From Acetatifactor sp. (GTDB lineage Bacteria; Bacillota; Clostridia; Lachnospirales; Lachnospiraceae), in assembly GCA_024693365.1 (NCBI GenBank), contig JAILLF010000054.1, positions 2,149 to 66,148 of the forward strand: DNA of 64,000 nt, read 5' to 3'. Under the pieces are notes generated by a model. That model ran no database searches. It worked only from the letters and a program-made list of their open reading frames with translations, and was not told the origin of the DNA. This document shows, piece after piece, positions 3,588 to 64,000 of this stretch. Made by a program: the position numbers and the translations under genes. Numbering within the stretch: the first letter of the stretch is position 1; the number at the start of each line of letters is the position of its first letter.

Positions 3588-3684
3588 CTCTTCGTTCCTT
3601 TCTTTTGGGGTTCTTACTTTTGGGGTTCTTTCTTTTTCGTTTCTTTCCAGTTCTTTCTTGCTCTTCTATTCCGGTTCTTTCTTT

Positions 3685-5349: not shown

Positions 5350-5529
5350 ATCATTAATCCCTATAATAGCGCTCTCTCGCCTTTATTATCCTTATTTTCC
5401 AGTCCTACTCTTCTGTCCTACTCTTCTGTCCTTATCTTTTCTCTTGTTTTCGTTCTTATTTTTTTCTCTCGTCATTGTTGCCTTGACGATCCATCTCAAA
5501 CCGTAAGCTTTCAACAACCTCGAGGGGGA

Positions 5530-5590
5530 GGGTCAGGTTAGTCCTTCTCAGGCATGTGTGCCAAGCGTGCCTGAAAGGACTATCTGACCC
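5530..5590 (-). other. Long imperfect stem-loop (~22 paired positions) inside the trpGD-trpC spacer
   Basis: gggtcag/ctgaccc, tagtcctt/aaggacta and tcaggca/tgcctga arms surround a 13-nt loop. No U-tract follows on the mRNA strand. Confidence 0.7.
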
Positions 5591-5609
5591 CGCCCCTGAG
5601 TTCCGCATC

Positions 5610-17085: not shown

Positions 17086-17862
17086 ATGACACGGAGTGAA
17101 AAGCAAGAAGCGAAACAGCGTAATGCAACAAAGCAGAGCAACACGGCAAAACAAAACAACACAACCAAACAACGCAACATGGTAAAACAAGGCAGCATGG
17201 CAAAACAAAGCGATACGTCAGAGCAAGCATCTGCAGCCAAGGAACCGAAAGAAACAAAAGCGAAGCGGGAAAAGAAGGTCAATGAGCCGAAGCAAAAGCG
17301 TTCGATCGAGACCAGAAACAAGATCCTGGAAGTGGGATCCATGCTGATGTTGCAGAAGGGCTATCACAACGTGACGACGGACGACGTGGCCAAGGCCGCC
17401 GGACTTTCCACAGGCATTGTCTATCACTACTTCAAGGACAAGAAGGACATTCTCCTTGTCGCGTTAGAGCTTCGCGCAAATGCCATGTTTGAGGGCTTCG
17501 CGGGAAAATATGCCCAGGCCCCGACCGTGGATTTTGAAGTTTTCCTGAATTCCCTCTTCGACTTTCTGATGGACTATCACAAAAAGTTCTGGATCATTCA
17601 CGAGGAGTTGGAATCGCTTTATCACAGCGATGCTGAAATCGCGGCCACGATCGATGATTACTGGCAGAAAACTTACCGCGCCATCACGGAAATCTACGTA
17701 CAAAAAAGCGGCAAGCCGGAGCATGCCGCTGAGAAGGTAAGAATCGCATTAGACCTTATCGAGGATTATTGTCACGCCTGCATGCATCCGATCGTTGAAA
17801 CCTTGGATCAGGATTACCTGCGACAGTCCGTGATCTCCCTCGTCAAAAACCTGTTAACCTAA
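17086..17862 (+). CDS. TetR/AcrR family regulator with a Lys/Gln-rich hexapeptide-repeat N-terminal extension
   Basis: HTH region KILEVGSMLMLQKGYHNVTTDDVAKAAGLSTGIVYHYF, preceded by ~70 aa of low-complexity sequence (KQRNAT KQSNTA KQNNTT KQRNMV KQGSMA KQSDTS). Confidence 0.85.
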   Translation: MTRSEKQEAKQRNATKQSNTAKQNNTTKQRNMVKQGSMAKQSDTSEQASAAKEPKETKAKREKKVNEPKQKRSIETRNKILEVGSMLMLQKGYHNVTTDDVAKAAGLSTGIVYHYFKDKKDILLVALELRANAMFEGFAGKYAQAPTVDFEVFLNSLFDFLMDYHKKFWIIHEELESLYHSDAEIAATIDDYWQKTYRAITEIYVQKSGKPEHAAEKVRIALDLIEDYCHACMHPIVETLDQDYLRQSVISLVKNLLT

Positions 17863-50871: not shown

Positions 50872-52494
50872 TCAACGTGCGTTTTCCATGTCCGCGGTAC
50901 ATTCGGACGCAGTTTGGCCGAATAGTCCCAGATCATACAGATGACCATAATAGTCGGTGTTCAAAACGTTTTTGCAGAAGTCATATTTCTTTCCAACGAG
51001 ATTTTTCACCGTCTTCACGTAATCCTCCGGAAGCTCAGTGTTTTCATCATAGGGTACAAACTTTCCCTTCTTGCAGATTCCCAGATCCGTCTTCCAATTG
51101 CTGCGGTCCAAAATGGCAATCGGCATGGCGTCAGAGAACACGTCCCTGCCCGGCAAAAGCCTGGAATCCCATTCCGTCCCAAAGAGATTCGAGAGCGTCG
51201 GCAACACGTCAATGCTGCCTACGGGATCACTGACAACGATCGGATCATATTCCTCGAGACACCCGCACCAAAGGATTAGGCGATTGTGATCCCTTTGGAA
51301 CACGTTCTCCACCTTTTCGCCGTATAATTCCGAAAGATACTTCATGTTCCCGTAGCCGGCACTGCTGCCGCCGTCAAGCCCGTAAGGATAGTGATCCGCG
51401 CTGATCACGATCACGGTATCGTTTGCAATCCCTTTTTCCTCGAGCCGTGCCACAAGATACGTCAGCGCATCCTCAAAATCCAGGTTTGCCGCCAAATATG
51501 CCTTGATCGGCGTCGATCCCTCCACGTCCGCAACCCGGTCCTTGTGCTTCTTCGCCATGGCATTGCTGTTAAAACCATAATTACTGTGCCCGCTCACGGA
51601 CATGTAATAAATATTAAAATGCTCCTGATCAATATACTCCGGGATCGTTCCCACAAACATGTCGCAGTCGCTCTCCGGCCAGGTCGGTCTGATAAATTTC
51701 TCCATGCCGTTGCCATATGCCATATAGCCTTCGGAATAGCCGAGATTATTGTGAGTCTTGTCCCTGTCGTACATGGTGTAGTTGCCGTTGTGATAAGCCT
51801 TGCCGAAATATCCCAGGCGGTTCAGCTGATTTCCCATGGTAAAATAATTATTTTGCGTTGCCGTCCTCTTCACGGAGCTGCCGCCTAGGACCGGAAAGAA
51901 TCCAAAGATATTCTGGCATTCCCCGCCCGTCGTTCCGGCGCCCGCGGGCTGATAGTAATCCGTGAACTGGATTCCTTTTGTCGCCAGACGGTAAAGCGTC
52001 GGCGTCAAATTCTCATCTATGACCTCTGCCGTAAATGCTTCCGCCGAGATGAAAATCAAATTCTTTCCGGCAAAGAGCCCCGTCATGCCATTCTTTTTCG
52101 AAGGCGTCAGCGAAGCTACGAAGGCATCGATCTGCTTGAAGTTTGCGCCGTCTGACGCTGCCAAGGCATCAAAGTCAATCTCCATCTTACTCTCTTCATC
52201 CAAAACTGTCTTTGACAGCGTGATCATATAATCTGACGGGATGGGCGTTGGCGTCGGCTCCGGGGTTGGTTCGGGCGTCGGTTCCGGCGTCGGAATCGGC
52301 ATATGATCCGGAGTCGTTGTTTCTCCAGGCCCCGCCGTATTGGTCGCCGCCACGGTCTCACTCGTCACCTGCGGCGCGTCTGCCGTCGACCCGTCCGTTT
52401 GTCCCGCATTCTTTTCACAGCCGGAAAACGCAACAAGCAACGCTGCGCCTGCCGCAATTAAAGTAATTCCAACCTTTCCGCTACGACGTTTCAT
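50872..52494 (-). CDS. Sulfatase/LTA-synthase-family (alkaline phosphatase superfamily) lipoprotein with a Pro/Thr/Glu linker
   Basis: Lipobox AFSGC, PTPEPTPEPTPEPTPTP linker, sulfatase-type core (ISADHYPYG). Confidence 0.75.
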   Translation of the reverse strand: MKRRSGKVGITLIAAGAALLVAFSGCEKNAGQTDGSTADAPQVTSETVAATNTAGPGETTTPDHMPIPTPEPTPEPTPEPTPTPIPSDYMITLSKTVLDEESKMEIDFDALAASDGANFKQIDAFVASLTPSKKNGMTGLFAGKNLIFISAEAFTAEVIDENLTPTLYRLATKGIQFTDYYQPAGAGTTGGECQNIFGFFPVLGGSSVKRTATQNNYFTMGNQLNRLGYFGKAYHNGNYTMYDRDKTHNNLGYSEGYMAYGNGMEKFIRPTWPESDCDMFVGTIPEYIDQEHFNIYYMSVSGHSNYGFNSNAMAKKHKDRVADVEGSTPIKAYLAANLDFEDALTYLVARLEEKGIANDTVIVISADHYPYGLDGGSSAGYGNMKYLSELYGEKVENVFQRDHNRLILWCGCLEEYDPIVVSDPVGSIDVLPTLSNLFGTEWDSRLLPGRDVFSDAMPIAILDRSNWKTDLGICKKGKFVPYDENTELPEDYVKTVKNLVGKKYDFCKNVLNTDYYGHLYDLGLFGQTASECTADMENAR

Positions 52495-52509
52495 TTTCCC
52501 GCCCCTCCG

Positions 52510-54696
52510 TCATTCTCCTTTTTCTTCTTGGCAAGCCTGTGTTATTTCCTCGCCCAAATATTTCCGGTTCTCTTCCTCGATGAGTCTTTGGATCCAATCT
52601 TTATCCACCAATTGATCCAGCGCGTCTGCCAATGCGGACTCATCCGCGAACACGTCAAATTCCTGTTGCTTTCGCTCCAACATCATCACCATGCTTTCAT
52701 CCACGGTATTTTCACAGAGCAAGTGATAAACCAATACGTTGCGCACCTGTCCCATGCGATAAACACGTGAGATTGCCTGATTTGTCAGGGAAGGTTTTAT
52801 CTGTGGTTCACAAAAGATAACGACGCTGGCGGACTGCACGTTCAGTCCCGTACCTCCTGCCTGAATCTGACAGATTACGGCACTCCCCGCCGGAGCATGC
52901 GTCAGTCTGTCAATCACGTCCTGCCGCTGCGTGACCTCCGTGCTTCCCGTGATGGTGCCGATGCACCGCTCTCCCAAAAGCGCTTCCACCTTGTCAATTG
53001 TCTCACGGAAGAAGGAATAGATCACCATCTTTCTTCCATCCTCCATCGCATCATGACATATCTCCAGAAGGCGCCGGGCCTTGGAGGACGTCTCCGCGTC
53101 TTCCCATAAAAATGCAACCCGCCGCATGGAATTAAAGCTCTTTGCCTCAACGGCACGTACATATTCCGCGCGATCTTCCGGCGTGAGTTCACACCATTCC
53201 TGCATCTCTTCTATGGGCGGCAGTTCCTCCAGCACCTGTTCCCGCTGCCTGCGCAGATATACCGGCGAAAGCAGTTCCCGGAATTCCGGTGCATGACTCA
53301 TAAAGGCATTCTTCCGCACTTCCTGCACCATGTCGGGGCGAAGGAATTCAATCAATGAACACATCTCTTCCACCTTATTTTCCAAAGGTGTTCCCGTCAT
53401 CATCAGGATTCTGTCCGACTCTTCATTCAGGGCATGCACGTGCTGGGTTCTTTGCGCATCTGGATTTTTTACGTAATGCGCCTCATCGATCACCAGCATG
53501 GCAAGCCGCATTTTTTTATCGATCTCCCAAACGAACTTTCCCATGCTCTCGAAGTTTGTGACTGCCACGCCGCCTTCCTCGCGCCACGCCGCAAACTCCC
53601 TCTCCCATGCACTTCCATGAAGCAGGTATGCTTCCATTTCACTAAATTTCTTAATCTCCCTGCACCAATTGATCAGAACGGACGCAGGACAAACGACCAA
53701 GAATTTTCTCTTCGGGTCTCCGGCGTAAACGTCACACATGGCAGCGATCGCCTGCACGGTTTTCCCAAGTCCCATTTCGTCTCCCAAAAGAACCCTTCTT
53801 TCAAACAAAACGTACTTCGCGCCAAAGAGCTGATAGGATCTGAGATTCCCCTTAAAGCAACTCAATTCGATCGGGGATTCGTCAATGGCTGCTGCCAGCT
53901 GGGCCGGAATGCTGCTGTAAATCAGTGCATTCTCCCGCGCCGACCCGCCATACGTTTCAAGCAACGCATAATAATCCGCACTGGATTCTTCAAAATCTCT
54001 TAAGCAATTCTCCAAAGTCATGTCATGAATCTCATGATATGCGTTTGCCCAGCTTCTTACCTCGTCACAATCTCCTCCGCCCAATAGTCTTTCCAGATCC
54101 TGGGCGGCCTTAGCCGTGCGCTCCTTAGAATCCTTTGCGGCAAAGAACCAGTGAAATCCATTTTTAATTTCAATTCCGGGGAGCACGTAAGTTACGCCCT
54201 GGCGGAATCTTTCTCCCACTTCCTTCACCATCGACCGGACGTGATTGCCCTTACGCAATCTGGAGATTGCCATGAGAAGCTCTGCATTGGGGATTTCACC
54301 CTCCGCCGTTTTCTCAAGCGAAAACCTTACGTGCACGTGCTTCGCCATGCTGTTGACAAATTCCGTAATAACGCTCCGAATGGCCTCCGCCTGTTTTTCT
54401 CCAATGCCATTGACCGCCGTAAGTTCCCAGTCCTTTAATCTGGCAAGCTGAAACAAATTGTCATACCCCGCCTCCCGCAGGGCTGACGTCCGGATGCCAG
54501 ACTTAGAGTTTTTTAACTCGTCCACGGAGATTCCTTCCAATGCCTCTAAGGCCCTTAGTCCGATCAGCCTGGAGCATTCCTCTTCCACTTCTTTTTCCTG
54601 GCGTTTTTGGTCATCACTCATAAACTGAACGTAATCGCTCAGTTCCTTTGCAGACTGCATCAATTGTTTGACGTGGTTAAAATCTAATTTCTTCAT
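52510..54696 (-). CDS. SNF2-family DEAD/DEAH-box helicase with an N-terminal HhH-like region
   Basis: Motif I DEMGLGKT, motif II VIDEAHYVKN, C-terminal helicase motifs (QAISRVYRMGQ). Confidence 0.88.
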   Translation of the reverse strand: MKKLDFNHVKQLMQSAKELSDYVQFMSDDQKRQEKEVEEECSRLIGLRALEALEGISVDELKNSKSGIRTSALREAGYDNLFQLARLKDWELTAVNGIGEKQAEAIRSVITEFVNSMAKHVHVRFSLEKTAEGEIPNAELLMAISRLRKGNHVRSMVKEVGERFRQGVTYVLPGIEIKNGFHWFFAAKDSKERTAKAAQDLERLLGGGDCDEVRSWANAYHEIHDMTLENCLRDFEESSADYYALLETYGGSARENALIYSSIPAQLAAAIDESPIELSCFKGNLRSYQLFGAKYVLFERRVLLGDEMGLGKTVQAIAAMCDVYAGDPKRKFLVVCPASVLINWCREIKKFSEMEAYLLHGSAWEREFAAWREEGGVAVTNFESMGKFVWEIDKKMRLAMLVIDEAHYVKNPDAQRTQHVHALNEESDRILMMTGTPLENKVEEMCSLIEFLRPDMVQEVRKNAFMSHAPEFRELLSPVYLRRQREQVLEELPPIEEMQEWCELTPEDRAEYVRAVEAKSFNSMRRVAFLWEDAETSSKARRLLEICHDAMEDGRKMVIYSFFRETIDKVEALLGERCIGTITGSTEVTQRQDVIDRLTHAPAGSAVICQIQAGGTGLNVQSASVVIFCEPQIKPSLTNQAISRVYRMGQVRNVLVYHLLCENTVDESMVMMLERKQQEFDVFADESALADALDQLVDKDWIQRLIEEENRKYLGEEITQACQEEKGE

Positions 54697-54822
54697 GCCG
54701 CCCTCCGCACCACGTTCATTTTATCATTTTTTGTTATGATTCACAAGGATTTTACCAGCCGTCTTGACGAAAAAGACGCTTTGATCTAAAATAATCTCCG
54801 CGCACTAAATAGGAGATACGTT

Positions 54823-56160
54823 ATGACGGAAGGTTCCATTTCAAAAAAAATACTGCTGTTTGCACTCCCCTTATTTCTCGGGCAGCTCTTACAGCAGTTA
54901 TATAACATTGCAGATTCCATGATCGTAGGAAAATATCTTGGTACGGATGCGCTTGCGGCCGTCACTTCCTCCGGAAGCCTGATCTTTTTGCTCGTCGGAT
55001 TTATCAACGGACTTTTTATGGGTTCCACCGTCATCATCGGCCGCCGGAACGGTGAAAAGGATGAGGCGGGAATCAGCCGCGCGGCGCACACCTCCGTGGC
55101 ATTCGGACTGATTGCCGGACTTGCGCTTACCCTGGCAGGCGTAACGATCACGCCGCTCCTTCTAAAGCTTATGGGGACGCCGGAGAACGTCATGCCAAAT
55201 TCCGTTTTGTACTTCCGCATTTACTTTCTCGGCGGCCTGTCCAACGTAATTTACAACACCTGCTGCGGCATTTTTCAGGCCATGGGAGATTCCAGGCGCC
55301 CCCTGCATTACTTGATTGTCAGCGCCATCACCAACGTCCTGCTGGACCTGTTATTTGTTGCAGTGCTTGGCTTTGGCGTTGGTTCCGCTGCTGCTGCCAC
55401 GGCACTCTCCCAGACGCTGAGCGCATGCCTTGCGTTTACGCGGCTTTTACGCGAAAAGGGCCCGCATCGCATTCATCTTTCGAAGATCAAGATTGATGCC
55501 CCGCTTCTTTCCGCGGAGCTAAAAATCGGTTTTCCCACGGCGATCCAAAACAGCGTGATCGCCATCGCCAACGTGGTTGTACAGTCTAATATCAATGCCT
55601 TTGGCTCCACCGCCATGGCTGGGAGCGGCAGCTATTTCAAGGTGGAGGGCTTTGCCTTCCTGCCCATCATGAGCTTTAGCATGGCTCTCACGACCTTCAC
55701 CTCACAAAACATGGGCGCGCAAAAGTTCGACCGCGCAAAGAAGGGAACACGCTTTGGCATTTTCATGGGCGTTGCCTGCGCGGAGCTGATCGGTCTTTTG
55801 TTCTTCCTGTTTGCGCCGGTCATGATCGGCCTCTTTTCCAAAGAACCTGACGTCATCGCGATCGGCGTTCGCCAAGCCCACGTGGAAACCTTATTTTACT
55901 GTCTGCTCGCACTCTCCCACTGCATGGCCGGGATCCTGCGCGGCGCCGGAAAAACTTCCGTCCCGATGATCATCATGCTGGCCTGCTGGTGTTTGATCCG
56001 CATCACCTACATCACCATCGCGGTGCGCTTTTTCCCAGACATCCGGACAATCTTTATCGCCTACCCGCTGACCTGGTCCCTCAGTTCGATCCTGTTTACC
56101 ATTTACTACGTCAAGGCCGATTGGGTGCACGCCTTTCAGCGAAAGAAAGAAGATCTATAA
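54823..56160 (+). CDS. MATE family efflux transporter
   Basis: 445 aa, 12 TM, typical N-terminus ILLFALPLFLGQLLQQLYNIADSMIVG. Confidence 0.9.
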   Translation: MTEGSISKKILLFALPLFLGQLLQQLYNIADSMIVGKYLGTDALAAVTSSGSLIFLLVGFINGLFMGSTVIIGRRNGEKDEAGISRAAHTSVAFGLIAGLALTLAGVTITPLLLKLMGTPENVMPNSVLYFRIYFLGGLSNVIYNTCCGIFQAMGDSRRPLHYLIVSAITNVLLDLLFVAVLGFGVGSAAAATALSQTLSACLAFTRLLREKGPHRIHLSKIKIDAPLLSAELKIGFPTAIQNSVIAIANVVVQSNINAFGSTAMAGSGSYFKVEGFAFLPIMSFSMALTTFTSQNMGAQKFDRAKKGTRFGIFMGVACAELIGLLFFLFAPVMIGLFSKEPDVIAIGVRQAHVETLFYCLLALSHCMAGILRGAGKTSVPMIIMLACWCLIRITYITIAVRFFPDIRTIFIAYPLTWSLSSILFTIYYVKADWVHAFQRKKEDL

Positions 56161-57036
56161 GATTTCCAGTTTTAGAAGCGCTTCCCTTGCGAGGGAGAAC
56201 GCCTCAAAGCCGGTGAGCTTCTTTCCTTCCTCCACTTGGATGGAGACAGGCTTTCGCTCAAGTCCTGCAAAGCCGTCAAAGTCAAACAAGTGCGGCTCGA
56301 GGGACAAAAATCCATGGAAGCCGTTTGCAAACATACGCGCCAAAATTTCCTTTACGTTACCGTCCCCGCATCCTGCAGGAACAACTTTTCCGCTCCCCCA
56401 AATGGCATCCTTCACGTGGACGTAATCGATATGGGCCTTTAAGAGTTCATACGCCTCCAGCGTATTTTGCCCTGCCTGCACGAAATTAGCAAAGTCAAAA
56501 ATGCCACGGAAATTTGCACATCCAAGCACGTCAAACAATTCCTTACATTCCTTTGCCATTTCTCCATAGATACCTTTTTCATTTTCATGCAAAAGCACCA
56601 CGTCCGCACTCTTTGCAAAGTCCACAAATTTCCCCAGGCGCTCGATCACCTCCTCCTTTACGCCGTCCTTGATCCAAACCTTTCCCTGTCCGTCTGTCTC
56701 TCTCGGCACGTAAAAACTAAACATGCGAATGTTTCTCGTTCCCATCTTATGCGCAATCTCGGTCGCACGCTTGAATTCTTCAAAATGCTTTTCAAACGGA
56801 TCCGTGATGCCAATCTTTCCCAGGGGAGACCCGATTGCTGACAGTGCAATTCCGGCATCATCCAATCTCTTTTTGATCTCCGCCACCTTTGTATCGTCAT
56901 GACAGATCAAGTTGTTTCCGTCGACGCCGCGCATCTCCACAAAGTGCATGTCCAATTTCCTTAAGCTATCAATCTGCACGCCCAGATCCTGATCGATCTC
57001 ATCCGCAAATCCGGTTAATTTCTGATACGTACTCAT
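56155..57036 (-). CDS. Sugar phosphate isomerase/epimerase (xylose isomerase-like TIM barrel)
   Basis: 293 aa, family-typical HENE and LEPH motifs. Confidence 0.8.
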   Translation of the reverse strand: MSTYQKLTGFADEIDQDLGVQIDSLRKLDMHFVEMRGVDGNNLICHDDTKVAEIKKRLDDAGIALSAIGSPLGKIGITDPFEKHFEEFKRATEIAHKMGTRNIRMFSFYVPRETDGQGKVWIKDGVKEEVIERLGKFVDFAKSADVVLLHENEKGIYGEMAKECKELFDVLGCANFRGIFDFANFVQAGQNTLEAYELLKAHIDYVHVKDAIWGSGKVVPAGCGDGNVKEILARMFANGFHGFLSLEPHLFDFDGFAGLERKPVSIQVEEGKKLTGFEAFSLAREALLKLEIL

Positions 57037-57068
57037 AGAATTCCATCCTCACTTTTTCTTTTTTACAC

Positions 57069-58301
57069 TTAATACGTCCCTTTGGTGTCAAAGGTGATGC
57101 CCTTGTCCACCTTCTTCTTCGAAGTTTTTCTGCGCTTGTTCAGTTCTTCCAGGAAGAGATCCTCGTCAAACAACGTCTCTGAATCGTTTTCCGTTGTCCT
57201 AGCCACCAAAGTGTTTTCCGTTGTCCTCGCCGCCGGCGCGTCATCAGAAGGAAGCACCACCGTCTTGCCCAGCCAGGAAGACAGAAACATCGCATTCGAA
57301 AGCGTTAACCCGTTGATGCCTTCCCTACCCTCGGCAACCAATGGCCCGCCGTTCAATATCCTGTCGGTGAATGCCTTCAGAACTCCAACGTGCTGTTCAT
57401 TTTGGCCATCCGTCTCAATCTCGATGCGCTCCATCTCCGGCACGGCAAATCCATTCTCTGCAATCTTACACCAGGTTCTCTCATTTGTTTTTAACCGGTC
57501 AAAGATGAGTTTTCCGTGTTCGCAAACGATCTTTCCCATCTCAAAGGTCAGTTCCAGGCGATTTGTTCCCGGAGCATCGCCCGTCGTCGTCACAAATACG
57601 CCCGTCGCGCCTCCGGCAAATTCCATGTATGCCGTCACGTCATCCTCCACTTCGATGTCATGCCACTTTGCCTCATGGCAAAATGCGCGCACCTTGGTTG
57701 GCATGCCGCAGAGCCACTGCAAAAGATCTAGCTGATGCGGACACTGGTTCAAGAGAACGCCGCCGCCCTCCCCGTCCCAGGTTGCCTTCCACCCTGCGGC
57801 ATCATAATAACTCTGCGTGCGATACCAGTCCGTAATGATCCAGTTCACGCGCTTCATTGCGCCAAGTTCACCGCTTTCCATCATTTCATGCAGCTTTCGG
57901 TATACGCAGTTCGTGCGCTGGTTGAACATGATTGCAAAGACCTTATCGCTCTTTGCCGCAACCTCATTCATCTCGCGCACTTGTTTTGTATAGACTCCAG
58001 CCGGCTTCTCACTGATGGCGTGAACGCCATGCGTCAGCGCATAAATCACAAATTCCGGGTGGAAATAATGCGGAGTCGCGATTAATACGGCGTCCACTTC
58101 GCCTGAGTCGATCAGCTCCCTGCCATCACAAAAACGCTTTACGTCTGCAGGCAATTCCTCCTTTGCCCAGTCCAGCCTGCTTTGGCGCACGTCAGCCACC
58201 GCAGTCAGTCGCATCTTCGGCACCATGCCCTTTACCACGTTCACCGCGTGACCGCTTCCCATGCCGCCAATTCCAATGATTCCAAGCCTTACTTCTTCCA
58301 T
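57069..58301 (-). CDS. Gfo/Idh/MocA family oxidoreductase with a charged C-terminal extension
   Basis: Start moved to ATG 58301 (MEEVRLGIIGIGGMGSGH Rossmann motif). The C-terminal tail has a duplicated ARTTEN segment. Confidence 0.85.
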   Translation of the reverse strand: MEEVRLGIIGIGGMGSGHAVNVVKGMVPKMRLTAVADVRQSRLDWAKEELPADVKRFCDGRELIDSGEVDAVLIATPHYFHPEFVIYALTHGVHAISEKPAGVYTKQVREMNEVAAKSDKVFAIMFNQRTNCVYRKLHEMMESGELGAMKRVNWIITDWYRTQSYYDAAGWKATWDGEGGGVLLNQCPHQLDLLQWLCGMPTKVRAFCHEAKWHDIEVEDDVTAYMEFAGGATGVFVTTTGDAPGTNRLELTFEMGKIVCEHGKLIFDRLKTNERTWCKIAENGFAVPEMERIEIETDGQNEQHVGVLKAFTDRILNGGPLVAEGREGINGLTLSNAMFLSSWLGKTVVLPSDDAPAARTTENTLVARTTENDSETLFDEDLFLEELNKRRKTSKKKVDKGITFDTKGTY

Positions 58302-58359
58302 TTTTCTTTCCCTTTCCCCATGCCTTTCCATAATACTTTTCCATAATACTTTTCCAGCC

Positions 58360-59361
58360 TTATGAGTTCCTCGCAGACTCATAAATCTGCATCACGGTTT
58401 GAAAAACGTTTTCCACGCCCTTTAGGTCATTTTGAAACCTTCCGCCAGTGCGAAGGCTCCTGTAGAAGTCAACGATACAAGCCTTATGCCCGCAACCCCA
58501 GTAATCCTTACCGATTCCTTTTTCCCATTCACGGATATAATGCTTGGGCGGTTCATTCTCTACGTATACCGTCACCTCAGAACCGTTCAACGTGATGCGG
58601 CCTTTCTCACCCTGCAATTCCAGAAGAATCGGTGCGTCAGCTGCATAGCCGGTAGACGCATAAAAGCACCCGCGTTTCTCTCCTCCAAAGGCCATCCATG
58701 CCTCGACAGTGTCCTCCACCTCAATCCTAGACGATAAATGATGATTGGCAATCGTCGCTTTTACGGTCTTGGGTTTTCCCAAGTATCGCAGGAGCAGGTC
58801 CAGCGTGTGTATGGACTGATTGATCAATGCACCTCCGCCTTCCGTCTCTATCTTTCCCTTCCAAGAACTTCCCTCATAATAATCCTTGTCCCGCCGCCAA
58901 GTCACAAACGCCCTGCCGCCAATGATCTTACCAACCTGCTTCTCTGCGACCAGCTGATCCATAAGAATTGTCGACTCGTTATACCTGTTTTGGAAACAAA
59001 ATCCCAGTTTTCCCGGATATCTTTGATTTTCCTCCTGGAGTTTCTGAAACTGCTCTGCCGTAGTGGCACAAGGCTTCTCCATAAATACTGCTTTTCCGTT
59101 TCGAAGAAAACCAATCGCCATGGGCACGTGAAGGTGATGCGGCGTACAGAGGTGAACCACGTCCACGTCTGCACGACAAACCTTTCGCCAGTTATCACAG
59201 ATGAGAACGTCATCAAGGCTTCCCATGGTTTCCGCCAGCTCTCTCGCACGCTCCAGGTCCACGTCGCAAAAAGCCGTCACCCGCACGTCTTCCATTCCGC
59301 CAAGCACCCACGCATGTACCTTTGCAATCCCGCCGCAGCCAATGATTCCAACTTTTTTCAT
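58360..59361 (-). CDS. Gfo/Idh/MocA family oxidoreductase
   Basis: MKKVGIIGCGGIAKVH Rossmann N-terminus, 333 aa. Confidence 0.88.
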   Translation of the reverse strand: MKKVGIIGCGGIAKVHAWVLGGMEDVRVTAFCDVDLERARELAETMGSLDDVLICDNWRKVCRADVDVVHLCTPHHLHVPMAIGFLRNGKAVFMEKPCATTAEQFQKLQEENQRYPGKLGFCFQNRYNESTILMDQLVAEKQVGKIIGGRAFVTWRRDKDYYEGSSWKGKIETEGGGALINQSIHTLDLLLRYLGKPKTVKATIANHHLSSRIEVEDTVEAWMAFGGEKRGCFYASTGYAADAPILLELQGEKGRITLNGSEVTVYVENEPPKHYIREWEKGIGKDYWGCGHKACIVDFYRSLRTGGRFQNDLKGVENVFQTVMQIYESARNS

Positions 59362-59566
59362 GACCGTCCTCCCTTCGCTCAGAAGCTACTTGCACGTCTA
59401 GTTTTCCTTTTATGCCTATTGTAATTCCTCCGCGCATGTTTTAATATATACATATAATACTATTTTTATATACTTTTCCGACTTATAAAAATTCCGCACG
59501 TCGATACAACGGGAAATCTGTCATCACGCATCTCATCTGACAAAAATGGAAGGAGCTGGAGAAATC

Positions 59567-60442
59567 ATGAGCGAAAACAACAAAAAACACGGCGCAAACA
59601 ACGTAAAAAGCGCCGGCATTTCCATGTTCCCCGTGGCACCGCCCTTTGACGTGGCTTATCGTAACGAAAAAGCGCCTTATCCCGTGGGACCTCATTCCCA
59701 TAATGCCGCGGAATTATATTTTACGCTGACGGACCTTCCTGACGTACTGATCAATGACACAGTGTCTGCCGTTCCCGCCGGAACACTTTTGATTCTTCCG
59801 GCCTTTTGCATCCATCAGCTCTATCATGAGACAGGCGTAACATATGAACGCTACGTTCTGAGCATCCATACCAAGTGGTTAAACGGCGTTTTCTGTGAGG
59901 GAGCCACTGCCTTCTCATATTTGGAAAACAGTTCAACTCCCGTCCTGCTCTCTCCAAACCGCACACAAAAAAAAGAGCTCCTTCGTCATTTCAACGAGTT
60001 GCTCTCTCTTTCCGACCAAACCTCACCGCAGGCCATGGTCAAGTTCTTTCAATTTCTTTCCGTCATGCATGGCATGGTAAACGAATCCGTGCCAAACGAC
60101 CCGCCGAAGCTTCCTGTCTCCCCTTCCCAAAGAAGGGTAAATGAAATCATCGCCTATCTCTTGGAGCATCTTGCAGAAAACGTAAAGCTCTCCGATTTGG
60201 CTTCGCATTTTTACTTGCATCCCGACTATCTTGCCAGGCTTTTTAAGAGCCACATGCACGTCTCCATCGGACATTACATAGCCCTCCAAAAGATCAGCGC
60301 AGCTGAGGCCATGCTCCGGGAAGGTCAGACGGTCGCGCAGGTTCAGGAAGCCCTGGGATACTCCAGTTACGCGTATTTTTTCAAATCCTTCCAAAAGATC
60401 ACCGGGATTTCTCCCAGCAAATACCGGGATCAATACCGCTGA
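59567..60442 (+). CDS. AraC family transcriptional regulator (cupin sensor plus HTH)
   Basis: C-terminal AraC HTH (LSDLASHFYLHPDYLARLFK ... GYSSYAYFFKSFQKITGISPSKYR). ATG 59567 follows GGAG. Confidence 0.88.
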   Translation: MSENNKKHGANNVKSAGISMFPVAPPFDVAYRNEKAPYPVGPHSHNAAELYFTLTDLPDVLINDTVSAVPAGTLLILPAFCIHQLYHETGVTYERYVLSIHTKWLNGVFCEGATAFSYLENSSTPVLLSPNRTQKKELLRHFNELLSLSDQTSPQAMVKFFQFLSVMHGMVNESVPNDPPKLPVSPSQRRVNEIIAYLLEHLAENVKLSDLASHFYLHPDYLARLFKSHMHVSIGHYIALQKISAAEAMLREGQTVAQVQEALGYSSYAYFFKSFQKITGISPSKYRDQYR

Positions 60443-60593
60443 TCACGGCATTATTGCGGCTCGATCGCAAGGCAAAGTGACAAGACCAGCAGCGTAATCA
60501 AGTTTACAAGTCTACCTCCGTTTTTTATCCTCATGTCCAAATCCCCCTTCTACCCCCTAACCACTCTTCCATTCCTTAACCGTAAGGACCCAA

Positions 60594-60634
60594 AAGAAAA
60601 AAGCGAAAAGTCATTGAATACAATGATTTTTCGC
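60594..60634 (-). terminator. Intrinsic terminator downstream of tRNA-Leu
   Basis: Minus strand gcgaaaaatcattg-tatt-caatgacttttcgc followed by TTTTTT. Confidence 0.75.
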
Positions 60635-60638
60635 CAGA

Positions 60639-60719
60639 TGCGGGCAACAGGACTTGAACCTGCACGGGGTTACCACCAGAACCTAAATCTGGCGCGTCTG
60701 CCAATTCCGCCATGCCCGC
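60639..60719 (-). tRNA. tRNA-Leu (anticodon UAG), long variable arm, no encoded CCA
   Basis: Hand-folded cloverleaf: acceptor GCGGGCA/UGCCCGC, anticodon stem CCAGA/UCUGG with loop UUUAGGU, T-arm GCAGG-UUCAAGU-CCUGU. 81 nt. Confidence 0.9.
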
Positions 60720-60754
60720 TTATAGTCGCCCTTTTCGCATCAGACGACTTTTAT

Positions 60755-60783
60755 ATTATATCCGCCAACGTCCACGACGTCAA
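60755..60783 (-). promoter_or_regulatory. Consensus sigmaA promoter of tRNA-Leu
   Basis: Minus strand TTGACG (60783..60778), 17-nt spacer, TATAAT (60760..60755), about 35 nt upstream of the mature tRNA 5' end. Confidence 0.7.
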
Positions 60784-60857
60784 GCCTTCCGCCATTCTAG
60801 ATTTTTATAAATACCAACCCGAAGCTTTCAACCACCTTTATCCCGATCGAGTTTCCC

Positions 60858-60953
60858 TGACAAACTGAAAGTTGTAGGGCTCTTTTTCATGACAAACTTG
60901 AAGTTGTAGAGTTCTTTTTCATGACAAACTTGAAGTTGTAGGGCTCTTTTGTC
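60858..60953. repeat. Three tandem 32-bp repeats, each containing a near-palindrome ACAAACTT-G-AAGTTGT
   Basis: TGACAAACT(G/T)(A/G)AAGTTGTAG(G/A)G(C/T)TCTTTT(T/G)(C/T)(A/C) at 60858, 60890 and 60922. Confidence 0.9.
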
Positions 60954-61012
60954 TCAACAGACGAATCTCGTTTCTTCAATTTACGGGTCAAACTTAGCTT
61001 TTTGTCATTCTA

Positions 61013-61595
61013 CCCGTAGACATTTTCATTTTCCTACGGGCCATTTTGCTTCTTTTGCAGTTTTGCCCGTAGTCCTTTCCAACTTCCTACGGGTCAAATT
61101 GCTTCTTTTGCTTTTTTGCCCGTAGCCTTTTCCAGCTTCCTACGGGCCATTTTGCTTCTTTTGCAGTTTTGCCCGTAGTCCTTTCCAACTTCCTACGGGT
61201 CAAATTGCTTCTTTTGCTTTTTTGCCCGTAGCCTTTTCCAGCTTCCTACGGGTCAAATTGCTTCTTTTGTTTTTTTGCCCGTAGCCTTTTCCAGCTTCCT
61301 ACGGGCCATTTTGCTTCTTTTGCTTTTTTGCCCGTAGTCTTTTCCAGCTTCCTACGGGTCATTTTGCTTCTTTTGCTTTTTTGCCCGTAGTCTTTTCCAA
61401 CTTCCTACGGGTCATTTTGCTTCTTTTGCTTTTTTACCCGTAGTCCTTTCCAACTTCCTACGGGCCATTTTGCTTCTTTTGCTTTTTTACCCGTAGTCTT
61501 TTCCGGCTTCCTACGGGCCATTTTGCTTCTATTGCTTTTTTGCCCGTAGTCCTTTCCAACTTCCTACGGGTCAAATTGCTTCTTTTGCTTTTTTG
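61013..61595. repeat. Eleven tandem 53-bp units, each with a 7-bp inverted repeat (CCCGTAG-N14-CTACGGG) plus a 25-nt T-rich (plus strand) / A-rich (minus strand) linker; noncoding; not a CRISPR
   Basis: Unit starts at 61013, 61066, 61119, ... 61543 (exact 53-bp phase), with degenerate partial units at 60981..61012 and 61596..61601. Both the hairpin and the linker are conserved between units. No ORF of 60 aa or more covers the region. Confidence 0.95.
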
Positions 61596-61921
61596 CCCGT
61601 AATTTTATGTTATCCCATGTTTTCTTCGCAATTTTGGATAACCTGTCACGGAGTTTACACTACCCAAGCTGCTTACAAGTCTATTTACTTTCCATACGCT
61701 TAATGCTACTTCACGTTTGTTGCTTTTTTGTTTTACTCAATCGGAGAAAGACAACACATATCCATCTTCGCTCTTACCATGTTGCATTTTAGGCCTCGCG
61801 TTCGTGACAAACTCCATGCATCAGTAATCACCTCGACAAACCCCAATTTATGCACCAGTAGTCATCTCGCCAATATCCGATTTGTATCATTCCTGCAGAA
61901 ACCCTTGAGCGAGAAAAGCAG

Positions 61922-63100
61922 TTATCTTAGTGCCTGTGCAAGATCATTGATAATGTCGTCCACGTTCTCGATGCCGATGGAGATGCGGACGAAGGCCTTC
62001 GTGATGCCCAGTGCCATCTTCGTGTCATCGGGAATGGACTCGTGGGTCTGGGTCCAGGGATAGGTGATCAAGGTCTCGGTGCCGCCAAGGCTCTCCGCAA
62101 ACAGGATCATGTTCACGTTGGAGAGAAGGTTCTGCGCCGTCTCCTCGCTGTCAAGCTCAAAGGAGATCATGCCGCCAAAGCCCGTGCACTGCTTCTTGCT
62201 GATTTCATAGCCCTTATGATTCTCAAAGCCTGCATAATAAACCTTCTTGACCTTGGGCTGGGTCAGAAGCCAGTTGGCAACCTTTCTTGCATTCTCGTCA
62301 TGCTGACGCATGCGGAGGGAAAGGGTCTTTAAACCGCGCAGGATCAGCCAGCAGTCGAAGGGTCCCAGCTGCGCGCCCATGGACTTGATCTGTCCCTGGA
62401 AGAAAGGAATTCTCGCGGGATCCTTAACAACCACGATGCCGGCGATCACGTCATTGTGACCGGTCAAATACTTGGTGCCGCTGTGTACCACAATGTCTGC
62501 CCCAAGATCCAAAGGCTTCTGGAAATAAGGGGTCAGGAAGGTGTTGTCCACGACAAAAATGCAATTGTTTTCCTTCGCGATCTTTGCGATCTCCTGGATG
62601 TCGGCCACCTTCATCATGGGATTGGTGGGCGTCTCAAGGAAGATCATCTTCGTCTCAGGGCGAAGGGCGTTCTTGATATTGTCAAGCTCCGTCATGTCGA
62701 CGTAGGAGAATTCGCAATTGAATTTGCTGAAGATCTCGTCACAGATACGGAAGGTGCCGCCGTAAATGTCATCGCACAGGATCACGTGATCTCCGTTCTC
62801 AAGAAGATTGAACACTGCCATGTTGGCAGCTTGTCCGCTGGTAAAGGCAAAGCCCTCCGCGCCATTCTCCAAGATGGCCATGGTGCGCTCCAGCTCCTGA
62901 CGGGTAGGGTTCTGTACGCGGGAATAGTTATATCCCGTGGAGACTCCAAAGGTTTTGTGGCGGAAGGTCGCCGTCTGAAAGATGGGGAAACTCACGGCTC
63001 CCGTGATGGGTTCACATCCCAACGCTCCGTGTACTACTTTCGAATCAAAATGCAAATTTTCTTTTCTGTCAAATTCGCTGTAAGCACATTCTTCTCTCAT
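61922..63100 (-). CDS. Cys/Met-metabolism PLP-dependent enzyme (cystathionine beta-lyase/gamma-synthase family)
   Basis: Start moved to ATG 63100 (392 aa). Family motifs YSRVQNPT and HSGTKYLTGHNDV (PLP lysine). Confidence 0.88.
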   Translation of the reverse strand: MREECAYSEFDRKENLHFDSKVVHGALGCEPITGAVSFPIFQTATFRHKTFGVSTGYNYSRVQNPTRQELERTMAILENGAEGFAFTSGQAANMAVFNLLENGDHVILCDDIYGGTFRICDEIFSKFNCEFSYVDMTELDNIKNALRPETKMIFLETPTNPMMKVADIQEIAKIAKENNCIFVVDNTFLTPYFQKPLDLGADIVVHSGTKYLTGHNDVIAGIVVVKDPARIPFFQGQIKSMGAQLGPFDCWLILRGLKTLSLRMRQHDENARKVANWLLTQPKVKKVYYAGFENHKGYEISKKQCTGFGGMISFELDSEETAQNLLSNVNMILFAESLGGTETLITYPWTQTHESIPDDTKMALGITKAFVRISIGIENVDDIINDLAQALR

Positions 63101-63173
63101 ACTTTTTCCATCCTTTCTGGATTTTATTCTAATTCCTTCGGCCAACAAACTGCCGTGATTTTTTCTGTTTTCT

Positions 63174-64000
63174 TTATGCTTCCCGCACGCGGCTGATATA
63201 ATCTTCGATCGCCCTGCGCTCCTCTTCCTTGTAAACAAAGCCTAATTTGGCACTTACGTGCTTCGCCGACGTCTCAAACAAGGCAATCATCTCAGCGACT
63301 GCTGCCCAAAGATGCTCATAATCCGCATCGGAATAGGTTTTCCGGAAGTGCTCATACAGGTCGCTTGGAAGATATTTCTTAAAGAACTTCCCTTCTTTGC
63401 CTGCCGACGTCGAAAAATCCGTCTCCGTGCCGACGTACCACTTCAGCATCTGCACCAACATGTCGCGCACGTAGTCGTTAAACTGCTTCATCGCATAGGA
63501 AAGCTCATCCCTTGCGATGCCCTTCGCCACGTTGTTCATGCACCAGTAAAACTCATTACAGCAATCCGAAAACTGCTTTTGCGTGGGCCTCTTTACGTAC
63601 CAGTAAGCCTTCGTTCCCTTGATCACCGGCGCCTTGTCATTCCCCTCGGAATCCCCTTCCTCTTTATTCAAAAGGATGATCGCAGGCTCATCACTTTCCT
63701 GAAAGGGCATTTCCGTAATGCAAAGGTCAATCCGGTTCCCGTCCGGGAACAGCATCAGATAGGCGAAATTCCCGTCGCCGTCCGGAGGGATCAAACTCAT
63801 GCTCTCCGGCTTTTGCATCAGCGCCGGCTTTCCAAACCGCCGCTCAATCCATTCATCATTGTCCCAGTACGGCTTTACGTCCTTCACCTGGAAGACGACG
63901 TCAAAATCCTGATGCGCATCCTTCGGCACGTCCGGATTGGCCCGGGAGCCGGACATCCAAACTGCGCGAATGTTTTCATCCGACTTCGCGATGCCAAGAA
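63174..64000 (-). CDS. Aminoglycoside 6-nucleotidyltransferase ANT(6)/AadK-like, N-terminus beyond window end
   Basis: GSRANPDVPKDAHQDFDVVF and LFPDGNRIDL match the ANT(6) adenylyltransferase family. The frame stays open upstream of the track's Met through position 64000 (...LGIAKSDENIRAVWMSGSRAN). Confidence 0.8.
   Translation of the reverse strand, partial: LGIAKSDENIRAVWMSGSRANPDVPKDAHQDFDVVFQVKDVKPYWDNDEWIERRFGKPALMQKPESMSLIPPDGDGNFAYLMLFPDGNRIDLCITEMPFQESDEPAIILLNKEEGDSEGNDKAPVIKGTKAYWYVKRPTQKQFSDCCNEFYWCMNNVAKGIARDELSYAMKQFNDYVRDMLVQMLKWYVGTETDFSTSAGKEGKFFKKYLPSDLYEHFRKTYSDADYEHLWAAVAEMIALFETSAKHVSAKLGFVYKEEERRAIEDYISRVREA

Follow-up and report, generated by a model that had tools for sequence, protein, structure and literature searches.

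A tandem array of 53-bp hairpin units in rumen Lachnospiraceae as a probable copy of a modular intergenic repeat family

The window, the whole 64,000-nt stretch of DNA analysed here, contains a strictly periodic array of small hairpins in a gene-free region beside a tRNA gene. This raises the question of whether such an array is a dedicated regulatory RNA or a repeat of another kind. A preliminary description compared it to the CsrB/RsmY/RsmZ RNAs, with which it shares several GGA triplets on one strand, some of them in hairpin loops, and A-rich single-stranded tracts in between. The array is probably one copy of a lineage-specific modular intergenic repeat family, consisting of a leader, n 53-nt units, and a trailer. 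As such it resembles the BOX repeats of pneumococci or REP-type repeats more closely than an RNA dedicated to sponging CsrA.

The array and its locus

TRF reports a 53-bp tandem repeat of 11.1 copies at 61013-61601 (90% matches, 0 indels, score 905). On the minus strand each unit runs linker (25 nt), CCCGTAG, loop (14 nt), CTACGGG, and both the loops and the linkers are purine-rich. The two 7-nt arms are invariant in 11/11 units and all differences among units are restricted to 14 loop/linker columns. The unit table and TRF thus bear out the earlier account of eleven CCCGTAG-N14-CTACGGG-N25 units that keep a strict 53-bp phase and differ only by point variants. The alternating subtypes it described are also found, with units 1/3 and 2/4 alternating in the window, and in homologous arrays a 106-bp period receives a higher TRF score than the 53-bp period. 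Searching for the hairpin pattern with up to two mismatches gave 11 matches in the window compared to 0.08 expected from shuffles, and none outside the array in the 64 kb. The folding z-score of the array is -8.3 on the minus strand and -10.4 on the plus strand. GGA triplets, previously put at about 25, number exactly 25 on the minus strand and 0 on the plus strand.

The whole element is slightly longer than its eleven units, spanning 60981-61602, and lies in a noncoding gap at 60443-61921, consistent with the protein-free stretch described before. No credible ORF crosses the array. The features of the locus, in the order in which they are met on the minus strand, are as follows.

61922..63100, minus strand: gene for a MetC/MetY-like PLP enzyme, encoded on the strand of the array and upstream of it (Pfam Cys_Met_Meta_PP, 4e-148; start codon revised from the translation)
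60923..61850, minus strand: ~0.9-kb multi-copy noncoding module containing the array (blastn; L042 sequence)
61603..61655, minus strand: conserved ~50-nt leader GTGACAGGTTATCCAAAATTGCGAAGAAAACATGGGATAACATAAAA, which aligns between the locus 1 copies and locus 2 (L038, L024)
61596..61602, minus strand: lone first 3' arm TTACGGG, the start of the array (read from the sequence)
61013..61595, minus strand: 11 complete 53-bp units (TRF, unit table, pattern search, folding z-scores)
60981..61012, minus strand: trailer, made up of the last linker in a variant form, TAGAATGACAAAAAGCTAAGTTTGA (minus strand), and then a lone 5' arm CCCGTAA
60858..60950, minus strand: 32-bp repeat, 2.9 copies, TGACAAACTTGAAGTTGTAGGGCTCTTTTTCA (plus strand; TRF)
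60755..60783, minus strand: tRNA-Leu promoter TTGACG-17-TATAAT, 11/12, downstream of the array on this strand
60639..60719, minus strand: tRNA-Leu(tag) (ARAGORN; Rfam 55.6 bits)
~60592-60634, minus strand: tRNA-Leu terminator, a hairpin and T-run (read from the sequence)

Within the leader lie an inverted repeat, GTTATCC/GGATAAC, and a weakly scoring promoter-like site (TTGCGA-18-TAAAAT, 61631..61602, 9/12). The -10 of this site is not preserved in L061 and L062 or at locus 2. Between the window array and the tRNA-Leu promoter no terminator was found. In L042, another copy of the module, a weak promoter-like site lies ahead of the array and a 12-bp terminator follows ~500 nt downstream. Arrays likewise open with a lone 3' arm at loci 1, 2, 4, 5, 6, and 7 of the family, and the trailer, ending in AAGTTTnACCCGTAA, is common to L036, L042, and L038 and partial in L069.

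The 0.9-kb module is ~92% identical to copies in L036, L040, L042, L061, and L062, which are found in other gene contexts. Compared to L042, the window copy is missing ~290 bp at 61803 and ~150 bp near 60950. The 32-bp repeat constitutes the second repeat type of the module, with 4.4 copies in L042 and further occurrences in L061 and L072. The wider context is made up of chromosomal housekeeping genes (trp operon, znuABC, GH36, metC). Homology of the MetC-like gene with relatives stops precisely at its stop codon, and synteny breaks exactly at the module, as relatives have metC-dapF whereas the window has metC-module-tRNA-Leu.

Several candidate readings of the locus were tried and rejected. 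Against a coding array, the period of 53 is not divisible by 3. A mini-ORF of 18 codons within the unit (ATG..TGA, with ATGA overlap) is broken in 4/11 window units and missing in paralogues. In-frame stops, in both the window and L036, interrupt a 126-aa ORF read on the leader's pyrimidine strand. No promoter was found within the individual units. Association with tRNA genes was discarded, a tRNA lying within a few kb at only 3/29 related loci.

Distribution, orientation, and copy number of the family

A scan of a genome collection recovered the identical 7-14-7-25 layout on 8 contigs of the MAG RGIG7929 and at 6 loci over 5 contigs of the MAG SRR12081296_bin.90, with diverged arrays in two other Lachnospiraceae MAGs. 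A metagenome scan added 11 more array loci on rumen metagenome contigs. In total, ~12 distinct genomic contexts are known from two closely related Lachnospiraceae MAGs and the rumen contigs, and the hosts form a tight cluster of uncultured rumen Lachnospiraceae with 86-95% mutual DNA identity. Pattern matches in Bacteroidales proved to be unrelated long double hairpins merely containing CCCGTAGG. Viral contigs, phages, and plasmids gave no match to the array, and the family is not described in the literature searched. Outside arrays, no solitary hairpins occur in 420 kb, while the L019 locus is down to a single unit. In L009, a diverged array from another MAG, the arms are retained at a 54-bp period, and the linkers are AT-rich and show no purine bias.

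The arrays are nearly always situated in short spacers separating unrelated housekeeping genes, most of them in 100-400-bp spacers within apparent operons that contain no promoter-like site. The flanking genes are functionally unrelated and include those for GH53, MutS2, an ABC ATPase, MoxR, thymidylate synthase, AddB, PGM, and NadE, among others. Arrays lie 28-80 nt ahead of start codons or 64-70 nt past stop codons, and at locus 3 the upstream methyltransferase ORF terminates within the first degenerate unit. In 11/12 contexts the purine-rich, GGA-bearing strand is the sense strand of the adjacent genes. The orientation, which had been left open, can thereby be assigned in favour of the minus strand. 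The module copy of L040 sits in the opposite orientation after a gene, and the arrays of the window and locus 5 lie upstream of a good promoter and not within an obvious transcript.

Loci 1 and 2 share the leader, giving an A-(B)n-C layout, and also the trailer, which is partly present at locus 5; loci 3, 4, 6, and 7 do not have the shared leader. Unit number across the family ranges from 1.4 to 11 and differs between relatives at locus 3 (3.3 vs. at least 6.4), at locus 6 (1.4 vs. 5.5), and at metC, where L061 carries the module with 5.5 units in the metC-dapF spacer vs. 11 in the window, although copy numbers from short-read assemblies may be collapsed. The copy-number variation among relatives that the preliminary description proposed to look for is thus present. 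In ten contigs that encode an identical MetC-like protein, the metC-dapF spacer is 80 bp long and free of the array. Comparison of filled (L061, window) and empty (L052) metC-dapF alleles shows a 67-bp spacer core that is replaced rather than interrupted, with no terminal inverted repeats or target-site duplication visible. A hypervariable VNTR that is absent from close relatives and silent had been named as one outcome that would speak against a functional RNA; half of this holds, in that unit number varies and the array is missing at this locus in close relatives.

The lineage is in general rich in intergenic tandem repeats that are purine-rich on the sense strand. One of these is a second hairpin family with a 52-bp period and a different stem.

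Constraint, composition, and rival readings

Between paralogous loci the arms are 96% conserved, the loops 59%, and the linkers 55%, a contrast that is inflated by the retrieval of loci with an exact-arm pattern. Across 280 stem cells, 93.9% are paired and one pair never varies, while changes on both sides of the stem are confined to three cells in two pairs. Stem covariation scores 0.059, where shuffles average 0.037 and 5/500 of them reach the observed value. G.U and A.C stem mismatches show no strand asymmetry and therefore assign no strand. Arm conservation with almost no compensatory change exceeds passive drift, which hints at sequence-specific recognition by a putative novel hairpin-recognising factor. 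In a bolder form of this idea, the near-invariant arms (CCCGUAG/CUACGGG) would serve such a protein as its recognition site in this Lachnospiraceae lineage, loop length (14 nt) and period (53 nt) being fixed while loop and linker sequences drift, and the arrays would be multivalent RNA/ssDNA platforms. This proposal is speculative and improbable as it stands. If true, the platforms would bring the protein to numerous operon spacers or, upon expression of long arrays like the 11-mer, titrate it, and would represent a new post-transcriptional layer, with a sponge or platform RNA in Firmicutes that need not serve CsrA.

In GGA and purine content the arrays do not stand apart. In the window array, the number of GGA triplets matches mononucleotide shuffles (z = 1.2), and their density, 4.2 per 100 nt, lies inside the range of ordinary sense-strand spacers of the window (3.1-4.8). 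The GGA z-score lies between -1.9 and +1.7 in 23/24 arrays, and array purine content equals that of ordinary spacers. Changes between paralogues comprise 71% transitions, which is ordinary, and selection for purines was rejected on this basis. Sense-strand spacers in this genome are 60-80% purine, making the array a cautionary case in which GGA counting yields sponge look-alikes.

It appears unlikely that a minus-strand RNA serves, through its hairpins and purine tracts, as a binding partner of CsrA, Hfq, KhpA/B, or some new hairpin-specific RNA-binding protein, which it would titrate in trans or recruit in cis. Such a role would draw on the 25 GGA triplets of the sense strand, the conserved sense orientation, arm conservation well above that of loops and linkers, and the UGGAAAAG core, which is retained in loops at 5/7 paralogous loci. 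The window linkers can further be read as six A-R-N triplets each, and L042 has its promoter-like site and terminator. Against this, GGA sits at the composition expectation and at ordinary spacer density, and the loops of locus 3 (L035, L050, L064, L070) have no GGA at all. The A-R-N pattern is lost in paralogues, and an Hfq (A-R-N)6 linker was rejected as fitting the window units alone. GGA loops of RsmZ and CsrB are 5-8 nt long, unlike the 14-nt loops of the array. Nor does the array appear to be a discrete gene like CsrB, RsmY, or RsmZ: the window has no terminator, the promoter-like site is not conserved, many copies sit within unrelated operons, and the array is variably present, being missing from the metC locus in close relatives. 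Rfam 15 at the gathering threshold matched the tRNA alone, and relaxing to E <= 10 gave only noise, such as RAGATH-8 with 15 bits, where the gathering score is 86.7. Neither csrA nor hfq was found in 669 kb, a fraction of the genome that does not speak for the whole (CsrA tblastn queries from B. subtilis and E. coli). The sponge design put forward earlier is accordingly unsupported. Of the broader claim of an RNA-level function, a constraint at the RNA level remains plausible in view of the sense orientation of the purine strand.

Arm conservation beyond mere pairing would also fit an element acting as DNA, with phased palindromic protein-binding sites or curved DNA functioning upstream of promoters or in nucleoid organisation. 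Half-sites would lie 21 bp apart, with units spaced by 53 bp, or ~5.0 turns. In a wedge-model calculation, summed twist is 5.00-5.04 turns per unit and the predicted curvature of 8/8 paralogous arrays lies above the shuffled-unit means. The window and locus 5 arrays are placed upstream of strong promoters, and L009 maintains the arms at its 54-bp period despite its AT-rich linkers. However, a palindromic duplex site requires neither a fixed orientation nor purine-only loops and linkers, both of which are kept, and most arrays lie in operon spacers lacking a promoter-like site. The curvature excess is weak (shuffle fractions 0.03-0.28) in a model in which any 53-bp tandem repeat is curved, and it is absent from the second family and L009. 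No candidate binding protein is encoded nearby, and this reading is considered doubtful. A mobile hairpin of the REP/RAYT or MITE kind, in which a trans-acting transposase recognises the arms as ssDNA and seeds loci that then expand locally, would account for the ~12 contexts, the conserved arms, the shared leader and trailer, and the single unit left at L019. The GTAG tetranucleotide is typical of REPs, and the arms contain GTAG/CTAC. Yet here GTAG is within the stem and not 5' of it, the units are direct tandem repeats in contrast to the alternating orientation of BIMEs, and solitary hairpins are lacking in 420 kb. With no transposase or RAYT domain in the flanking genes of the loci tested, and neither terminal inverted repeats nor a target duplication in the filled/empty site pair, such mobility seems quite unlikely.

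Reading the plus strand instead, the array would form 11 weak intrinsic terminators or an anti-SD-like RNA, halting or sequestering transcripts from the AraC side. A U-rich tract follows every hairpin on this strand, a terminator scan detects pyrimidine-strand units of locus 5, and the L040 copy has this orientation after a gene. This is nevertheless very unlikely, as the pyrimidine strand is antisense to adjacent genes in 11/12 contexts and a 7-bp stem with a 14-nt loop makes a poor terminator, with only 1/11 window units passing a simple scan. The real tRNA-Leu terminator is also located elsewhere. With its regular direct repeats, each containing a dyad symmetry, and its conserved flank resembling a leader, the array is reminiscent of a degenerate CRISPR array or of a type III toxin-antitoxin (ToxI-like) antitoxin, and ToxI RNAs resemble the arrays in being direct tandem repeats of tens of nucleotides, sense-oriented upstream of a gene. 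The cptIN type III system comes from a Lachnospiraceae. The features tested leave these readings effectively refuted. Within an array the 25-nt 'spacers' are near-identical, no locus is flanked by cas or ToxN/AbiE-like genes, and there is no Rfam CRISPR-DR or ToxI match, in agreement with the earlier view that the array is not a CRISPR. Downstream of the arrays lie tRNA-Leu and diverse housekeeping genes (GH53, MutS2, ABC ATPase, MoxR, thymidylate synthase, and others) rather than a toxN/cptN-like endoribonuclease gene. A sopC-type centromere or iteron, with ~10-12 tandem 40-50-bp repeats that each contain a 7-bp inverted repeat and a period near an integer number of helical turns, is similar in layout. 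The family differs in being chromosomal, multi-locus, strand-asymmetric, and transcription-oriented, with no nearby par/rep genes and no plasmid or phage match. Neighbouring genes and near-identical 'spacers' led to the rejection of the CRISPR, ToxI-like antitoxin, centromere, and iteron candidates alike.

Comparison with BOX and REP repeats and proposed behaviour

In Streptococcus pneumoniae and S. suis, BOX elements have the structure boxA-(boxB)n-boxC with internal units of 45 bp (PMC3049150). The modular repeat family likewise has conserved end modules around tandem units, here 53 bp long, whose number varies, and both are small, noncoding, dispersed intergenic elements in unrelated contexts that are predicted to form RNA hairpins and have no transposase of their own (PMC3049150). 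Copy number varies between strains in both, and BOX elements are co-transcribed with their neighbours, which they are thought to modulate, where co-transcription of the present family is inferred (PMC3049150). BOX-like here refers to a kind of element and not to a homology family; there is no sequence homology. The leader and trailer differ from BOX in showing no terminal inverted repeats, and MITE hallmarks, including target-site duplication, were not seen on comparing the filled and empty metC-dapF sites. Only ~7-12 loci are known compared to >100 for BOX, loci 3, 4, 6, and 7 are devoid of the shared leader, and the arrays are longer, with up to 11 units and almost purely purine loops and linkers.

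The REP/BIME elements of Enterobacteria and Pseudomonas are likewise extragenic palindromes clustered in operon spacers, with a GTAG/CTAC motif, and are known to affect mRNA stability and attenuation in cis. They also break assemblies and mark rearrangements. In contrast to BIMEs, which alternate in orientation, the units described here are strictly direct with a fixed 53-bp period, the stems are short (7 bp), the loops long (14 nt), and no RAYT gene was found at the loci examined.

As members of a modular repeat family, the arrays would be passively co-transcribed within mRNAs or read-through transcripts, as their position and orientation suggest. The transcript would resemble beads on a string, with 7-bp hairpins and unpaired purine tracts between them. 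In the opposite orientation, each hairpin would be followed by a U-tract in the transcript, which may attenuate transcription and be counter-selected, offering a possible reason for the orientation bias. Alternatively, the bias could stem from the direction of replication. Any effect would probably be modest and in cis, on the processing, stability, or translation of the mRNA of neighbouring genes, similar to proposals for BOX, REP, and ERIC elements and without trans-acting titration of CsrA. Arrays may lengthen and shorten through replication slippage or unequal recombination between identical arms, which the 106-bp higher-order units fit. Dispersed copies of the 0.9-kb module may in turn act as recombination substrates, consistent with the synteny break exactly at the module. 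Neither terminal inverted repeats nor a target-site duplication nor a transposase turned up that would account for the dispersal of the family.

For the lineage itself, the conserved arm sequence offers a concrete lead towards a putative hairpin-recognising factor, and copy-number variation could mark strains of these uncultured bacteria. The arrays and the 0.9-kb module terminate many short-read contigs, 12 of the ~29 arrays ending at contig ends. Together with the synteny break, this suggests that they probably cause MAG fragmentation and mis-joins, as well as real rearrangements, in rumen Lachnospiraceae.

Architecture of the 53-bp array

The array lies in a gap (60443-61921) in which no credible ORF was found and which also holds a tRNA-Leu gene, in agreement with its preliminary description as a noncoding array. 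The features of this region are listed below.

60981-61602, minus strand: full element, slightly longer than first described
61013-61601: tandem array detected by TRF (period 53, 11.1 copies, 90% matches, no indels, score 905)
60923-61850: noncoding module of about 0.9 kb around the array
60858-60950: 32-bp repeat, 2.9 copies (TGACAAACTTGAAGTTGTAGGGCTCTTTTTCA), carried by the module, between the array and the tRNA-Leu promoter
60783..60755, minus strand: near-consensus promoter of tRNA-Leu itself
60639-60719, minus strand: tRNA-Leu(tag)
about 60592-60634: hairpin and T-run terminator visible in the sequence
63100: true start of the gene for a 392-aa MetC-like protein

When cut in phase, 11/11 units have the layout CCCGTAG-N14-CTACGGG-N25, which bears out the eleven tandem hairpins in fixed phase originally reported. 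All 14 arm positions are invariant among these units and 14 loop and linker columns hold all of the variation. With up to two mismatches allowed, the hairpin pattern is matched 11 times against 0.08 expected, with no match in the remainder of the 64 kb. On the minus strand the full element starts with a lone 3' arm, TTACGGG, and ends with a variant linker and a lone 5' arm, CCCGTAA. Units 1/3 and 2/4 form two alternating subtypes and a 106-bp period outscores 53 bp in homologous arrays, so the suggested higher-order repeat also holds. Both strands fold far better than shuffled sequences (z = -8.3 and -10.4), and the identity of all arms allows for numerous alternative or nested pairings.

A coding array was rejected as the period of 53 is not a multiple of 3, mini-ORFs are unconserved and the leader ORF is interrupted. 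Where AAAATGA is present (61013-61595, minus strand), a unit contains an 18-codon mini-ORF (MTRRKLEKTTGKKAKEAK) with a stop overlapping the next start (ATGA). Its ATG is missing in 4 of the 11 window units and the ORF is not kept in paralogous arrays, hence it is not coding. Gene context rules out a CRISPR array, as already proposed, along with a ToxI-like antitoxin array and a plasmid centromere.

A dispersed family with conserved arms

A scan of 185,579 species-representative genomes (pattern CCCGTAG-N10-18-CTACGGG-N20-30-CCCGTAG) found the 7-14-7-25 architecture in two Lachnospiraceae MAGs: RGIG7929, from buffalo rumen, with arrays on eight contigs, and SRR12081296_bin.90, with six loci on five contigs. 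Diverged arrays occur in 'Candidatus Pullilachnospira stercoravium' (contig L015) and a third MAG (contig L016). The Lachnospiraceae MAG RGIG8260 (contig L009, 2630-2960) has five to six hairpins, (C)CCGTAG-N14/15-CTACGG(G), with the arms of the window array, a 54-bp period and AT-rich linkers without purine bias, adjoining tRNA-Met. The other ~30 matches are due to chance or, as in Bacteroidales, to long hairpins that do not belong to the family. A stricter two-hairpin pattern gave 11 further loci among metagenome contigs and none among 2.9 million viral contigs. Phage and plasmid collections contained no match to the 1-kb array region, and Rfam gave no family match even at E <= 10. By sequence identity, the window DNA is assigned to this array-bearing lineage, with 61922-63998 being 94.6% identical to RGIG7929 and 52387-60906 being 98.4% identical to metagenome contig L072. 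When grouped by flanking homology, ~7 orthologous loci common to close relatives (loci 1-7) and several larger-module copies make up about 12 genomic contexts. Features on other contigs are as follows.

L042 1380-1560 and L040 3553-3758: 62/63-bp repeat of the shared module, present about three times and containing a long hairpin (TACCTCCCGTGAGGG...)
L051-L060 7180-7260: array-free metC-dapF spacer, compared with window 61803-61922 and L061 1879-2960
L069 7160-7609: second hairpin repeat family, 52-bp period, 8.7 copies, sense-oriented and flanked by addB and a 264-aa gene
L005 5491-5571, L011 4332-4412, L018 4915-4995 and L010 589-647: paired hairpins of Bacteroidales

The last of these are intergenic long hairpins of rumen Bacteroidales MAGs (GCCCGTAGGTCC...GGACCTACGGGC), two per site and about 52 bp apart. 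They have only the CCCGTAGG core in common with the Lachnospiraceae family, were rejected as members, and resemble an unrelated element of REP-like or terminator type.

Arrays at loci 1 and 2 have in common a leader of about 50 nt and a trailer (..AAGTTTnACCCGTAA), the latter found in part at locus 5. As arrays also nearly everywhere open with a 3' arm and close with a 5' arm, the layout is leader-(unit)n-trailer. Module copies ~92% identical to that of the window are present in four other contexts (L036; L040; L042 and L062; L061). The window copy lacks the 62/63-bp repeat, with ~290 bp lost at about 61803. The 32-bp repeat type is also found in L042 (4.4 copies), L061 and L072, and some of its L042 units contain TGTCGAA, resembling a Spo0A box.

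The conserved feature of the family is the arm sequence itself. Identity between paralogous locus consensuses is 96% in arms, 59% in loops and 55% in linkers, a contrast inflated by a discovery pattern that demanded exact arms. Loops and linkers vary among loci yet remain 82-92% purine on one strand. Arm positions are paired in 93.9% of 280 cells, only three of which changed on both sides, and there is no strand asymmetry among G.U and A.C mismatches. The compensatory stem changes sought following the preliminary description are therefore nearly absent, leaving pairing plausible but unproven by covariation.

The closest known analogue is the pneumococcal BOX element, followed by REP/BIME elements. 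In BOX, a noncoding composite (boxA-(boxB)n-boxC) found dispersed, the tandem core varies, RNA hairpins are predicted and co-transcribed genes are affected (PMC3049150). The 53-bp family follows the same dispersed modular logic without shared sequence. Further points of difference are its small number of loci, the strictly direct repetition of its units, and purine-only loops and linkers. The one surprise is the near-invariant arm sequence while loops and linkers drift.

Orientation and candidate roles

Adjacent genes have the purine-rich strand as their sense strand in 11 of 12 contexts, L040 being the exception. Arrays lie 28-80 nt before start codons and 64-70 nt past stop codons. The methyltransferase ORF upstream of locus 3 terminates within the first, degenerate unit and MutS2 begins 44 nt past the last; a simple scan found no promoter-like site there and a sole terminator-like match on the antisense strand. 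Neighbouring genes share nothing (GH53 galactanases, MutS2, ABC ATPase, MoxR, ThiT, response regulator, thymidylate synthase, AddB, PGM, GT2, NadE, histidine kinase). Together, the sense orientation, spacer position and unrelated neighbours point to passive co-transcription with the GGA strand as sense. This would settle the orientation initially left open, with the caveat that replication direction is confounded with gene orientation. As a counter-case, the arrays in the window and at locus 5 lie upstream of a strong promoter, outside any obvious transcript.

A CsrB-like sponge RNA was first proposed from the GGA content. The estimate of about 25 triplets on the minus strand was exact, with none on the plus strand. 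GGA frequency is however at the level expected from composition (window z = 1.2; 23/24 arrays between -1.9 and +1.7), and locus 3 loops contain no GGA. The array (73% purine, 4.2 GGA per 100 nt) resembles other sense-strand spacers of the window, such as those inside the trp operon (60-82% purine, 3.1-4.8 GGA per 100 nt). The leader promoter-like site scores just 9/12 with an unconserved -10, and there is no terminator between the window array and the tRNA-Leu promoter. CsrA of B. subtilis and E. coli had no tblastn match in 669 kb, which is just a fraction of the genome. The sponge reading thus lacks its defining support and is improbable. That a hairpin-specific protein, new to science, uses the arrays as platforms or sponges is improbable, its small chance coming from the near-invariant arms over drifting loops and linkers. 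An element acting at the DNA level, as phased palindromic sites or curved DNA, has some support in the conserved arm sequence and a twist of 5.00-5.04 turns per unit. Predicted curvature exceeds the shuffled-unit mean for 8/8 paralogues (wedge model), but this excess is weak, every 53-bp tandem repeat bends in the model, and strand asymmetry and orientation bias are left unexplained. REP/RAYT-like mobilisation would explain the conserved GTAG-containing arms, but the loci showed neither a transposase nor inverted terminal repeats nor target duplications, and 420 kb contained 0 solitary hairpins outside arrays.

Locus variability and other repeats

At least 23 contigs encode a 392-aa MetC-like protein identical to that of the window. 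In 10/10 contigs examined (L051-L060), RGIG7929 included, dapF follows metC across an 80-bp array-free spacer that contains a terminator-like hairpin. The preliminary description had named a hypervariable VNTR, absent from close relatives and with no expression signal, as an outcome against its own reading, and the array is missing from this spacer in all ten. In contrast, the independent 73-kb metagenome contig L061 carries a module with 5.5 units in that exact spacer. The window, with 11 units, has the order metC, module and array, tRNA-Leu, AraC; tRNA-Leu replaces dapF and synteny breaks exactly at the metC-like stop codon. The tRNA-Leu/32-bp-repeat junction is independently confirmed by L072, which ends inside the module. 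The window hence joins metC-type and tRNA-Leu-type module copies, either by recombination between dispersed copies or by an assembly join across the repeat.

Copy number also differs at two other loci, with 3.3 against at least 6.4 units at locus 3 and 1.4 against 5.5 at locus 6. Contig ends cut 12 of about 29 arrays and short-read collapse may distort these copy numbers, while the presence/absence result is robust.

The remaining window is ordinary chromosome (trp operon, znuABC, Csp germination protease, GH36 enzyme, transporters). A 454-aa Cys-rich lipoprotein gene without a Pfam match is intact in L072 (408-1772), and only its first ~20 codons are kept in the window (60455-60545, reverse strand), which indicates a ~1.27-kb window deletion between the AraC gene and tRNA-Leu. 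Relatives L053-L060, which lack the aadK-like adenylyltransferase gene present in L051, L052 and the window, have a purine-rich 31/47-bp tandem repeat (5112-5263) before their DNA-alkylation-repair gene.

Repetitive spacers rich in purines seem to be typical of the window genome as a whole, and in the lineage intergenic tandem repeats (12-63-bp periods) that are purine-rich on the sense strand are generally abundant. The L069 family has a 10-bp stem (CAGGCAAGTA-N14-TACTTGCCTG) unrelated to CCCGTAG, with a purine-rich linker and the same 14-nt loop, so that only the architecture is alike. The trp-operon spacers at 3588-3684 and 5350-5609 (minus strand) have a sense-strand purine content of 66-82% and include short tandem repeats of 15/24 bp (3598-3698) and 13 bp (5402-5438). 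An 18-bp repeat at 17129-17211 (4.6 copies, CAAAACAAAGCAACACGG) lies within the first 125 nt of a called TetR-family regulator ORF, the Pfam domain of which does not start before residue 80. The ORF has probably been called from too far upstream, and the repeat is probably 5' UTR.
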